In this document: positions 28,662 through 31,504 of the stretch, piece by piece
How the letters are laid out: each line of letters starts with the position of its first letter
Numbering within the stretch: position 1 is the stretch's first letter
Assembly: GCA_934149325.1 (NCBI GenBank)
Contig: CAKPEJ010000002.1
Span: forward strand, 10,194-74,193
DNA length: 64,000 nt
Source: an uncultured Bacilli bacterium
Lineage (GTDB): Bacteria > Bacillota_I > Bacilli_A > RF39 > UBA660
Reading direction: 5' to 3'
Notes under the pieces: generated by a model
What the model was told of the DNA's origin: nothing
Seen by the model: only the letters and a program-made list of their open reading frames with translations
Database searches by the model: none
Made by a program: the position numbers and the translations under genes

Positions 28662-28687
28662 AAACGGACTATTTGTCCGTTTTTTTC
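28662..28687. terminator. Bidirectional terminator hairpin (AACGGAC-tattt-GTCCGTT + T6) between convergent genes
   Basis: 7-bp GC-containing stem with 5-nt loop followed by TTTTTT. Overlaps the stop of the minus-strand GT gene. Confidence 0.6.
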
Positions 28688-29754
28688 ATAATTATTTCTT
28701 TATTTTTCAACAATCTCTCATCCTTAGGATTCATATCTATTGCGATCAATATATTTTTAAGAGCTAAATTATATTCTTTTTCATAAAAATATGCAATTGA
28801 TAACAAATCATATATTGTATTATCCCAACTAAAAACTTCATTAATATAGGTTTTTTCGTGACTATTTATTTTTAATGCCTCATTACAATATTTAATTACT
28901 TCTTTATAATTTTTTAGTTCATATTCTAAAATTGCTCTTTCAACATAAGGATCTCTTAAATATGGTGCTTCATTTATTGCTTTATCAAGCCACATCTTTG
29001 ACTCATCATATCTACTTAAATTTTCATAGCATCTGGCTATAAATCTCATTGAAGCACATCTTTCATCCTTCCAAGTTGAACTCTTTAGTTTTAAATGCTT
29101 TATTAATGTATCTATTGATTCATTCCATTTACCGTAATACATATATTCTCTTCCTAAATAATGCATATTTCTATCATTTTCAGGATATTCTTTTATAGAT
29201 AATTCAAGTAGTTTTAAATAATTTTTTCTTGATTTACTAACATCTGGATAGTGATTAAGTACGATATTTTCATTTGTTACAATATTTTCGTTTTTTATTG
29301 AACATTCTAACACTTCATGAACAGGATAAATCCATTTATAATGTTTTCTATCATGTATTTTTTCGTATAAAAAGGATACTTTGGGTTTATTATTTTCATC
29401 TAAACTCCAATTATATGTGTATTTACATCTATTAGTATTATTCTTCCATACTTTTTCTAATTTTTTTCTCCAACCCTTTTCAAAAATTTCATCTAAATCA
29501 GTACATACACAAATATCAAAATCATCTGGAACCATTTTTAATGATTCATTCCTAGCAACATCAAATCTCCAAGGTTCTATTTTTTTATGAGATACATTAA
29601 CATTTCTTTTTTTTAATTCATCTACTGTTTTATCTTCGGATCCTGTATCCAAAACATATATTTGATCGGCTTCACTCATTGATTTTACCCATCTATCTAC
29701 AAATTTTTCTTCATTTTTACTTATTGCATATACACATATTTTATATTTATTCAT
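28669..29754 (-). CDS. Family-2 glycosyltransferase with C-terminal TPR repeats (candidate glycosyltransferase of the adjacent collagen-like proteins)
   Basis: GT-A features (ICVYAISKNEE...YVLDTGSEDKT, DLDE DXD-like) followed by TPR-like helical repeats. Start at MNKYKI (29754). Confidence 0.75.
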   Translation of the reverse strand: MNKYKICVYAISKNEEKFVDRWVKSMSEADQIYVLDTGSEDKTVDELKKRNVNVSHKKIEPWRFDVARNESLKMVPDDFDICVCTDLDEIFEKGWRKKLEKVWKNNTNRCKYTYNWSLDENNKPKVSFLYEKIHDRKHYKWIYPVHEVLECSIKNENIVTNENIVLNHYPDVSKSRKNYLKLLELSIKEYPENDRNMHYLGREYMYYGKWNESIDTLIKHLKLKSSTWKDERCASMRFIARCYENLSRYDESKMWLDKAINEAPYLRDPYVERAILEYELKNYKEVIKYCNEALKINSHEKTYINEVFSWDNTIYDLLSIAYFYEKEYNLALKNILIAIDMNPKDERLLKNKEIIMKKTDK

Positions 29755-29764
29755 TATAATCACC

Positions 29765-30502
29765 TTATTTTCCTAAATATTCTACAACTATATTTACCAA
29801 AGCATTAGTAAAATATGAATTAGATTTAATATTATTTAAATCTGGAGTTAGAATATATATATCTTTTTGCCCTATATTTACTAACTCATATATATTTTTA
29901 GTATCATCAACAGCAAGTATTCCTTGACCAGAAACATAAGTATATTCATTCTTATATCCCCACTTACTTGAACCTATATAAATATTATCAGTATTTAATA
30001 ATCTTAAACCAATTGATATGAAATCTGTATCAGGATTAAAATTATTATTTGTTTCTTTAATCATTGATGAAATAATATAGGTAATTTTATAATAACCTAC
30101 TTGATTAAAACTTAATGTTTTTTCAACATTATTTAATGTAACTAAATTATCAACATCTAATTCTATTCTATCAACAGGAATTCTTTCTTCTACTTTTATA
30201 TTTAAACCATCTGGATATGTCCCATCATTATATGTAACAAGATATGCATTTTTTATTTTACTTGGTCCATCATTTCCTCTTGGTATTGTAAAATCTAAAA
30301 CATGATTAGGTCCTCCTCTATCAGTAACAACAGCATTACTTCCTGCATCTCCCGTTATAGTATTACCAATTTCTATTGTTTCTGATATACCAGGATTACC
30401 CTGTGGTCCTGTTGGGCCTTGCGGTCCTGTAGGACCAAAACAAAGTTTACATTTTCTTTTATTAATAGACTCAAGTATTTTTTTCTCTTCACAATTATCC
30501 AT
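29765..30502 (-). CDS. Short collagen-like (GXY) repeat protein, BclA-like (N-terminal Cys-containing segment, [16 protein letters not shown], ~200-aa C-terminal globular domain)
   Basis: [22 protein letters not shown] followed by a non-repetitive C-terminal domain. Confidence 0.7.
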   Translation of the reverse strand: MDNCEEKKILESINKRKCKLCFGPTGPQGPTGPQGNPGISETIEIGNTITGDAGSNAVVTDRGGPNHVLDFTIPRGNDGPSKIKNAYLVTYNDGTYPDGLNIKVEERIPVDRIELDVDNLVTLNNVEKTLSFNQVGYYKITYIISSMIKETNNNFNPDTDFISIGLRLLNTDNIYIGSSKWGYKNEYTYVSGQGILAVDDTKNIYELVNIGQKDIYILTPDLNNIKSNSYFTNALVNIVVEYLGK

Positions 30503-30592
30503 ATATACCTCCTATAATCAATATATAATATGTTCAAATACATATTATTGTTAATAAAAAGAAAAATTCTTTTTTGAATTTTTCTTTCATAT

Positions 30593-31504
30593 TTATGATA
30601 TTCTAACTATATTTAAATAAGCATTAGTTCCTGATGATGGTGTTACAGTTGCTTGATTATTTGATAAAATTGATATTCCTATTTCATCACCTGCGGACAA
30701 TGAATTTATTGTGCTTCCAACAAAATCTGTATTTGTGTTTGCATTAATTTCTTTTGTTATTGTTGTACTACCAATACTACTAGCATTTTGTTTCGCTCCA
30801 ATTGTTAATGTTGTATTTACACTTGAACTTCCTGAAAAATAATATTCAATTAAATATACGCCATTTTCAACAACTGTAAGTGTATTTTGAGTATTTGTTG
30901 TTACATTATTAACTGGACCTGTAGTTCCTAATGCAACATTTTGGCCTATATTTGCTTCTAATGATAATGGAGTTTCAGTTATATTATATTTTCTACCAAA
31001 AGTACTTAATGCTGGACCTGTTGGACCTTGAATTCCTTGTGGTCCTGCAACACCTTGTGGTCCTATTGGTCCTGCTGGACCTGCTGGGCCTGTTGGACCT
31101 GTTGGGCCTTGAATTCCTTGTATTCCTTGCTCACCTTGTGAACCCGCTGGACCTACTGGGCCTACCAATCCTTGTGGTCCTTGTGGTCCTGTTATACCTT
31201 GTGGTCCTTGTGGTCCTGTTGGACCAACGTCACCTGTTGGTCCTGCTATACCCTGTATTCCTTGTGGTCCTGTTGGGCCTGCCGGTACAGTAAAATCAAA
31301 TATTGCATTTTGATTTGTTCCAACATTTGTAACGGATGCTGATGTTCCTGGATTTCCAGTATTTGTTACACCAACACTTATTGTTGTTGGACCTGCTGGA
31401 CCTGTTGGACCTGTCGCACCAGTTGGTCCAAAACATGGTCTACAACATTTTTTATTTTGATTTATCATTTTTATTATTTCTTCATCTTTACAACAATTAT
31501 TCAT
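30593..31504 (-). CDS. Collagen-like triple-helix repeat protein (BclA/exosporium-type): N-terminal KKCCRPC Cys cluster, two GXY blocks (~45 triplets), ~140-aa C-terminal domain
   Basis: Long uninterrupted [25 protein letters not shown]... run. DNA shows a 9-nt periodic GGTCCTGTTGGACCT-type repeat on the plus strand. Confidence 0.8.

Follow-up and report, generated by a model that had tools for sequence, protein, structure and literature searches.

The window analysed here is a 64,000-nucleotide stretch of DNA from an uncultured Bacilli bacterium (GenBank assembly GCA_934149325.1, contig CAKPEJ010000002.1, positions 10,194 to 74,193), with a G+C content of 22-32% and with almost all genes on the minus strand. 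Its segment 28669-31504 is filled by three co-directional minus-strand open reading frames (ORFs) that encode a long collagen-like protein (col303; 30593..31504), a short collagen-like protein (col245; 29765..30502) and a protein glycosyltransferase of family 2 (GT2) with tetratricopeptide repeats (TPR; 28669..29763); the trio sits between the gene for a PcsB-like M23 peptidase and a small DUF2752 gene. An earlier, sequence-only reading of the window had placed at the same coordinates two collagen-like genes and an adjacent GT2-TPR glycosyltransferase, and both the ORFs and the Pfam matches bear this out. Here we argue that the locus is probably a spore-surface glycoprotein module of the BclA/SgtA type that belongs to an uncultured gut spore-former. 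The relatives considered below come from a scan of one genome per species, which yielded 52 genome loci with a col245-type gene.

Two collagen-like proteins with different heads

The long protein, col303 (303 residues; Pfam Collagen, E 2e-15), begins with a hydrophilic leader (residues 1-25; 31430..31504) that carries cysteines at positions 4, 5, 20, 21 and 24 in the arrangement CC...CC..C. The leader is followed by a first collagen block of five GXY triplets (residues 26-40; 31385..31429), by a beta module (residues 41-75; 31280..31384) that interrupts the collagen and forms the first entry of our 38-column module alignment, by a second collagen block of 30 triplets (residues 76-165; 31010..31279) and, finally, by a BclA_C, or C1q-like, C-terminal head of about 138 residues (166-303; 30596..31009). 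Hence, there are 35 triplets in two blocks, in place of the approximately 45 triplets that had been counted earlier. The 30-triplet run is not a chance feature because it has homologues in thousands of proteins. With respect to the BclA_C model (PF18573; cut-off 38), the full-length protein scores 35.3 bits and the isolated head (residues 165-303) 38.7 bits; the same model matches nine of the nine col303-type heads from related loci (best E 4.9e-16), and the BclA_C assignment is already attached by Pfam to most database homologues of col303. Assemblies in the European Nucleotide Archive contain a protein that is identical to col303 (P0241), as well as others that are 84-87% identical.

The DNA that encodes the collagen is an imperfect repeat with a period of 9, 18 or 27 nt and with 69-92% matches, as detected by Tandem Repeats Finder, and it is the second block that is length-polymorphic among strains: variants that are 99-100% identical to col303 outside this block have 30 (the window), 22 or 15 triplets, and in a sister species group, 30 versus 52 triplets are found on heads that are near-identical by eye. 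Fibre length varies between strains through slippage in the imperfect 9-nt repeat; that the repeat can differ in length had been anticipated by the sequence-only reading, which had noticed the 9-nt periodicity. Given that the collagen helix rises by 0.286 nm per residue, the stalk of col303 would measure from about 17 to 30 nm depending on the strain (about 30 nm in the form found in the window), and that of col245 about 5 nm. Two plus-strand ORFs (30931-31293 and 31336-31611) were rejected as genes, being leucine-rich mirror images of the GXY-coding collagen DNA.

The short protein, col245 (245 residues), is built in the order leader, six triplets, beta module, two triplets, head. Its leader (residues 1-22; 30437..30502) has cysteines at positions 4, 18 and 21 and, in the AlphaFold2 model, a predicted helix at residues 4-15; the block of six GXY triplets (30383..30436) leads to the beta module (residues 41-75; 30278..30382), with predicted strands at 43-51, 58-61 and 67-74, and, beyond the two remaining triplets, to a head of about 164 residues (82-245; 29768..30259). 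The earlier count had been about five triplets. Over the first 84 residues, col303 and col245 are 45% identical (E 6e-18), which makes them a pair of paralogues with a common N-terminal cassette and different heads. This shared cassette, along with the beta module, had escaped the sequence-only reading. The module is 35-38 residues long, follows the consensus xxTIxVGxTTTGxPGxxAxVxDxGxxxNHILDFxIPxG, is predicted to form three strands and occurs in 0 to 3 copies per family protein; it has no relative in Pfam or NCBIfam, and a profile made of 28 modules retrieved nothing below E 0.18 from among all PDB sequences.

The strings of cysteines ahead of the helix, which had been pointed out before, are indeed there, as the cluster of col303 and as KCKLCFGPTG in col245. 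Adjacent cysteine pairs are found in col303 (4-5 and 20-21) and are lacking in col245; conservation of Cys21 of col245 reaches at least 90% in the family alignment, and other family members have up to ten cysteines directly ahead of the first GPTG. It is possible that the cluster staples the chains to one another, as the sequence-only reading had suggested, or that it anchors the fibre covalently to a Cys-rich partner. The N-termini do not resemble the leader by which Bacillus exosporium proteins bind ExsFA/BxpB: neither col303 nor col245 matches an NCBIfam model of this leader, and the LIGPTLPPIPP-like motif that is typical of it is absent from both (the N-terminus of col245 reads MDNCEEKKILESINKRKCKLCF).

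No signal peptide, hydrophobic core, transmembrane segment, LPXTG or other wall anchor is visible in the two sequences, and a signal-less, cytoplasmic trimeric fibre is what one would expect of a protein that is laid on the forespore by the mother cell. It is hardly what one would expect of Scl- or Lcl-type adhesins on the surface of vegetative cells, an explanation suggested by the partial matches to the NCBIfam Lcl and Scl models. Those matches all lie inside the GXY region and reach 59-70 bits against cut-offs of 325-500; with scores so far under the cut-offs and with no export or anchor signals, the adhesin explanation was rejected as highly improbable.

The two heads are distinct, in agreement with the sequence-only reading; their lengths of about 138 and 164 residues correct the range of about 140-200 residues that it had given. 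It had also proposed that they be compared with BclA-type C-terminal domains, and here the two part company: the col303 head passes the cut-off for BclA_C, as described above, whereas the col245 head resembles this class in predicted fold and not in sequence. The latter head has no match in Pfam, NCBIfam or the sequences of the PDB; the 554 homologues of col245 are all unannotated, and when 1.84 billion cluster representatives were searched exhaustively with HMMER, the head was found in only 193 clusters (50% identity), invariably at the C-terminus of proteins of 200-540 residues. An AlphaFold2 model of col245, built from 30 family members (pLDDT 83, mostly above 90 in the head), has a beta jelly roll of the C1q/TNF type as its head. 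When this model was compared with the PDB by Foldseek, the best match was the C-terminal domain of F-BclA, the tip fibrillum of the F-ENA spore appendage (9h38; E 6e-8, TM 0.80), and the other best matches were EDA-A1, BclA (2r6q, 3tyj) and C1q-like domains. A direct hhalign comparison of the col245 head with col303-type heads gave a weak match (57% probability over 62 columns). Thus, both heads appear to be of the C1q/TNF type, that of col303 falling within BclA_C and that of col245 representing, as its model indicates, a separate, unannotated family.

The match to F-BclA, which the col245 head resembles more than any other solved structure, raises the question of whether the two proteins could be tip fibrilla ('ruffles') of a separate spore appendage, an Ena-type pilus, or be disulfide-coupled to it, instead of forming a nap in the outer layer. 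A collagen stalk with a C1q head and no exosporium leader is common to L-BclA, F-BclA and the proteins described here. In addition, L-BclA has a CC in its Cys-rich N-terminal connector and is proposed to be coupled by disulfides into the L-ENA pilus, and a similar CC-bearing tip candidate is known for S-ENA, the pilus lumen being the proposed site of docking (PMC11362473, PMC12357932); the CC pairs of col303 at 4-5 and 20-21 fit this picture. However, no DUF3992 (Ena) or DUF4183 Pfam match was found among the window ORFs scanned, and the clustering of 55 loci revealed no further gene family that is conserved along with the module, whereas l-bclA shares an operon with ena3A. The proteins studied here further differ from L-BclA and F-BclA in lacking the hook motif of F-BclA (IILPH-type) and in being coupled to a glycosyltransferase. 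Because no Ena-type gene occurs among the scanned window ORFs or the conserved neighbours, we regard a place at the tip of a pilus as unlikely.

The glycosyltransferase and its candidate substrate

The start codon of the glycosyltransferase gene is likely to be the ATG at 29754, which would yield a protein of 361 residues. In this enzyme (361-364 residues), Pfam recognizes Glycos_transf_2 at residues 14-111 and TPR_1/TPR_2 at 242-301, and the stretches DTGSEDKT and TDLDE of its sequence represent the nucleotide-binding and DxD-like elements that are usual in GT2 enzymes. The AlphaFold2 model (pLDDT 93.4, pTM 0.85) shows a GT-A fold up to approximately residue 170 and helical repeats at residues 177-359. 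Its best PDB matches, over the full length, are SunS and ThuS (7msn, 7msk; E 2.6e-16, identity 17-20%), followed in the structure ranking by TPR proteins, including the TPR arm of O-GlcNAc transferase; a sequence search against the PDB retrieved TPR proteins only. The enzyme has more than 7,400 homologues, of which the 120 closest are unnamed gut metagenome proteins with at least 68% identity. Phages have homologues as well, namely jumbo phages that infect Pseudomonas, Erwinia or Dickeya and one Actinomycetia phage (30-37% identity; e.g., Pseudomonas phage PaBG, 178633-179523), and a 5-kb faecal fragment labelled 'Bacteriophage sp.' encodes one with 51% identity.

A glycosyltransferase of much the same layout, SgtA, is known from Clostridioides difficile: its 358 residues are divided between GT-A (1-260) and four TPRs (262-358), its gene adjoins bclA3, and in vitro as well as on spores, it puts beta-O-GlcNAc on threonines in the collagen repeats of BclA3 (PMC7157674). 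SgtA agrees with the enzyme in architecture, size and genomic position and is a closer functional analogue of it than SunS and ThuS, which share with the enzyme the two-domain GT-A + TPR fold over the full length and the glycosylation of peptide side chains but act on small bacteriocin precursors, where they can S-glycosylate cysteine; no bacteriocin gene is seen here. From the enzyme's architecture, fold and gene linkage, we propose that the TPR arm would hold the fibre polypeptide while the GT-A domain would move a sugar to threonine (or serine), with GPT triplets as the most probable sites, in the manner of SgtA on BclA3. There are nine GPT triplets in col303 and two in col245.

The substrate could also be something other than collagen threonine, namely the Cys-rich leader, subject to S- or O-glycosylation, the beta module, the head or an unrelated peptide. 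The nearest solved folds, after all, are those of glycocin S-/O-glycosyltransferases, conserved cysteines lie just ahead of the helix, and the genes to which the enzyme is linked, those of the col245 type, in many cases encode no more than 3-8 triplets. Against this stand the low identity to SunS and ThuS quoted above, the lack of a glycocin-like precursor or transporter nearby, and the precedent of SgtA, which shares domain layout and genomic position with the enzyme and O-GlcNAcylates threonine in GPT-type repeats. On balance, such a substrate appears improbable.

Expression, conservation and relation to known spore fibres

A terminator-like hairpin with a U-run follows the upstream M23/PcsB-like gene and separates it from col303 (31572..31597, minus strand; -9.0 kcal/mol, z-score -3.85); a second such hairpin lies between col303 and col245 (30557..30588, minus strand; -11.7 kcal/mol, z-score -3.85), and an intrinsic terminator marks the end of the glycosyltransferase gene (28661..28683, minus strand; -11.5 kcal/mol, z-score -4.93). 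The gap between col245 and the glycosyltransferase gene is only 1-10 nt, depending on the start codon chosen, and the two genes are translationally coupled. Given the positions of the hairpins and this narrow gap, the simplest reading is that there are two transcription units, with col303 transcribed by itself and col245 together with the glycosyltransferase gene.

Upstream of col303, the box CATAATATA (31527..31535, minus strand) matches the -10 element of mother-cell sigma factors, with GC, not AC, at the -35 position; col245 is preceded by a complete sigma-K-like promoter (30524..30551, minus strand) that consists of AC, 17 nt and CATATTATA and ends 21 nt ahead of the ATG. The bclA1-3 genes of C. 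difficile are controlled by sigma-K, whose promoters carry AC at -35 and, like those of sigma-E, a CATA-type -10 element (PMC3789822). Among the relatives, AC-N16/17-CATAnnnTA is found no more than 100 nt upstream of 25 of the 94 family genes, compared with 17 of 816 for the remaining ORFs of these loci (Fisher p = 6e-16), and the -10 box alone precedes 45 of the 57 leader-bearing genes, usually by 24-32 nt from the start codon, against a background of 11%. The background was taken from the other ORFs of the same AT-rich loci and, accordingly, controls for the ease with which CATA boxes turn up in DNA of 25% G+C. A scan for sigma-70 found promoter-like sites to be no commoner than in shuffled sequence and was, therefore, uninformative. 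The window encodes SpoIID (59068-59994; 92.7 bits) and SpoIIID (58069-58332; 92.1 bits), both of which the sequence-only reading had named, as well as a SpoIIQ-like M23 protein; as read from the sequence, spoIID, the spoIIQ-like gene and spoIIID are in the classical arrangement beside an mreB/mbl-like gene. The promoter motifs, taken together with this context, suggest sporulation-specific expression of col303 and col245.

All 52 loci are in uncultured gut metagenome-assembled genomes that are labelled Bacilli, 'Tenericutes', Mollicutes or Clostridium sp. CAG:433/465/1219. The closest of them is 65% identical, so that the window's own species is absent from the scanned representatives. When the ORFs of 55 loci were clustered, only two families recurred around the col245 genes, the collagen/C1q proteins, with 95 genes spread over 51 loci, and the glycosyltransferase, present in 33; the remaining neighbours differ from locus to locus, and the flanks are chromosomal. 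Of the 52 genome loci, about 32 have the enzyme gene next to a col245-type gene, and the start of the enzyme gene lies between -29 and +10 nt from the stop codon of the collagen gene in 21 of the 33 loci. Across the loci, the enzymes are 57-73% identical and the col245 heads 40-66%. The full three-gene order of the window recurs in L006-L009, L019, L043 and L045. Thus, as both the recurrence of two families and the order of genes in the loci indicate, the conserved core consists of a col245-type gene and the enzyme gene, and the BclA_C-type paralogues are frequent additions to it.

An agr-type quorum-sensing set is present in the window at 53067-55866, where it comprises AgrB (53067-53684, plus strand; 112 bits), a GHKL histidine kinase (53865-55172, minus strand) and a response regulator (55150-55866, minus strand). 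In loci L001-L004, such a set adjoins the col245-type gene and its glycosyltransferase gene, beside hpf and secA.

Chromosomal flanks are relevant to yet another explanation, according to which the genes encode phage tail fibres or are prophage remnants. There is some ground for it: the matches of col303 to PHROG tail-fibre families reach E 3e-28, the enzyme matches phrog_13126 (E 4e-104) and, as noted above, has homologues in jumbo phages, and a viral structure library contains collagen + C1q proteins with similar scores. Most of the PHROG matches to col303, however, fall in the collagen region, although phrog_5073 reaches part of the head (residues 64-269), and those to col245 are confined to the GXY region and the beta module. 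A tblastn search with col245 against 50,697 phage records (INPHARED) found no match, and a scan of 2.9 million IMG/VR contigs with the family alignment found no relative. The neighbours in the window are housekeeping genes, and the flanks of the 52 genome loci differ from one another. The sequence-only reading had seen no phage genes nearby and had regarded tail-fibre heads amid phage genes as the finding that would speak against a spore-surface module; there are no phage genes nearby, and no member of the family was found in INPHARED or IMG/VR. A phage origin is, therefore, very improbable. Phage and giant-virus collagen + C1q fibres do share the fibre plan and the head fold with the proteins described here, and differ from them in that viral context is lacking here and the searched collections of phages and viral contigs yielded no member of the family.

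These data can be combined into a scheme of how a spore-surface module of the BclA/SgtA type might operate. The fibre proteins would be synthesized late in sporulation in the cytoplasm of the mother cell, under promoters of the sigma-K/sigma-E type, as the promoter motifs and the lack of an export signal suggest. Their C-terminal C1q/BclA-type heads would trimerize, as other members of this family do, whereupon the collagen triple helix would zip up. The N-terminal cassette, that is, a short helix, the CC..C cluster, five triplets and a three-stranded beta module, could staple the three chains and/or link the fibre by disulfides to a Cys-rich outer spore layer, and it would replace the ExsFA-binding leader of Bacillus BclA. 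Because the latter leader is absent, the module is BclA-like rather than orthologous to BclA. With the number of triplets corrected and the beta module added, the sequence-only reading of the locus is upheld. Compared to the known modules, its new parts are the head family, the Cys-rich leader that stands in place of the exosporium leader, and the beta joint that interrupts the collagen.

Several observations weigh against this scheme. Expression, spore-surface location and glycosylation are all read from motifs, architecture and context. The exosporium leader is missing, and there is no gene for the exosporium basal layer or for Ena among the window ORFs scanned. The -35 position of col303 is GC rather than AC, and CATA boxes are easily found in DNA of 25% G+C. 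The C1q-headed collagen fibres of phages and giant viruses score similarly in Foldseek; as the C1q-collagen fold is found in viruses too, the fold alone cannot place a protein on the spore, and the argument rests on context. The likeness to SgtA is one of layout, size and gene position, not of compared sequences. Finally, col245 has only two GPT triplets, and yet it is the col245-type gene, not the long collagen gene, that is tightly linked to the enzyme, so that the acceptor site may lie outside the collagen region.

The closest known parallel is the BclA3-SgtA pair of C. difficile (CD3349/CD3350), where, as here, a collagen-like protein with a head is encoded beside a co-oriented gene for a GT-A + TPR protein of about 360 residues and the collagen varies in length. 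The expression of that pair depends on sigma-K, and the motifs observed here are sigma-K-like, in full for col245 and in the -10 element only for col303. Unlike in C. difficile, the enzyme gene is located downstream, not upstream, of the collagen gene, and its coupling partner is the gene of a very short collagen protein whose head forms a separate family; furthermore, a beta module interrupts the collagen, and the N-terminal domain is a short Cys-rich leader. BclA of the exosporium hairy nap of Bacillus anthracis and B. cereus resembles the proteins of the window in its GPT-rich GXY repeats, its trimeric BclA_C/C1q-like head, the lack of a signal peptide and the strain-dependent number of repeats. 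It differs in possessing the exosporium leader, in that there is no counterpart of the second paralogue with its non-BclA_C head, and in being adjoined by a rhamnose operon, whereas the adjacent sugar enzyme here is a GT-A + TPR protein.

Spore-surface fibres govern the adhesion of spores to hosts, to one another and to surfaces, but detailed knowledge of them is limited to the Bacillus cereus group and C. difficile. If the spore-surface interpretation is correct, a large, uncultured, genome-reduced group of human-gut Bacilli has a BclA/SgtA-like module that is assembled from different parts. In gut metagenomes, the genes could then be used to mark the capacity to sporulate and the variation of spore-surface antigens, and the proteins would be small, tractable candidates for studying how a GT-A + TPR enzyme recognizes a collagen-like substrate.

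Split and interrupted genes in relatives, and other features of the window

Instead of a single gene for the fibre, at least 10 of the 52 loci have a row of 2-4 consecutive short genes, and each of these possesses an ATG and a GAAAGGA-type ribosome-binding site of its own. Loci with such split genes are L023, L026-L028, L031, L032, L035, L036, L039, L042 and L044 (e.g., L035, 9236-10819). The position of the breaks is highly regular: at 13 of the 13 junctions that were examined with a hidden Markov model of the beta module, the last 30 residues of the upstream protein correspond to module positions 1-26 (20-32 bits), and the first 30 residues of the downstream protein to positions 21/28-38. 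In other words, the upstream proteins end in strands 1-2 ('...TIGTVTTGAPGTxAxVTITP'), and the next proteins start with strand 3 ('M...YxLDFVIPxG'). Several genes that encode strand 3 and a head stand alone in L042, L039, L026 and L023. This gene structure suggests that the split beta module can be completed in trans. It is conceivable, although we put this forward only tentatively, that the module is a self-assembling joint in which a 'socket' (strands 1-2) and a 'plug' (strand 3) are united by strand complementation, so that end-to-end fibres on the spore surface would be built from collagen segments with genes of their own and from C1q heads that can be exchanged; the proteins of the window would, in that case, be the fused form of the system. 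To our knowledge, no such assembly principle has been described for collagen-like proteins, and, if real, it would be a new route to the modular assembly of protein fibres.

Interruption of a different kind is seen in L003 (13262-15347), where a BclA_C-type gene of the family is broken within the first GPT codons and a gene for a 684-residue serine recombinase lies right at the junction; the counterpart of this gene is intact in two otherwise identical contigs (compare L001, 13172-14287). L005 (8859-10792) shows a like pattern, with a recombinase of 523 residues; in both loci, the break falls inside GPT codons (GGNCCAACT), and the recombinase gene forms the beginning of the insertion. Recombinase-bearing elements that are excised in the mother cell are known to interrupt sigK, spsM, gerE and yabG (PMC4191935, PMC5595907, PMC10747680); interruption of this sort is characteristic of sporulation genes of the mother cell and, to that extent, favours the spore-surface interpretation. 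By analogy, the insertions in L003 and L005 resemble such mother-cell intervening elements, or else prophages whose attachment site lies in collagen-repeat DNA; plain prophage integration would give the same picture.

Elsewhere in the window, the neighbours of the trio include ftsE, ftsX, the M23/PcsB-like gene, prfB, a YitT-family gene, the genes for DUF2752 and DUF4190 proteins and that for a FAD oxidoreductase. A WYL/HTH regulator and a Bro-N domain protein are encoded at 40545-42416 (minus strand), amid several ORFs without a family match (43386-45552), and this region may be a small mobile or defence island. Between 48391 and 51885 (minus strand), two lipoprotein-like genes that are similar to each other (48391-49038 and 49983-50633) lie on either side of a membrane-protein gene (49042-49974), beside a gene for a 412-residue protein with a segment resembling type IV secretion system pilin and a CHAP domain; this, perhaps, is what remains of a conjugation or secretion system. 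A giant ORF of 4,732 residues (901-15099, minus strand) has 18 Listeria-Bacteroides repeat (Flg_new) domains (E 8e-153) and presumably encodes a surface protein. Finally, prfB (35290-36249; PCRF and RF-1 domains), listed as an ORF that starts from TTG, is in fact the downstream frame of a gene with the classical programmed +1 frameshift site, which is located at about 36292-36310 (minus strand) and reads GGAGG, 3 nt, CTT TGA.

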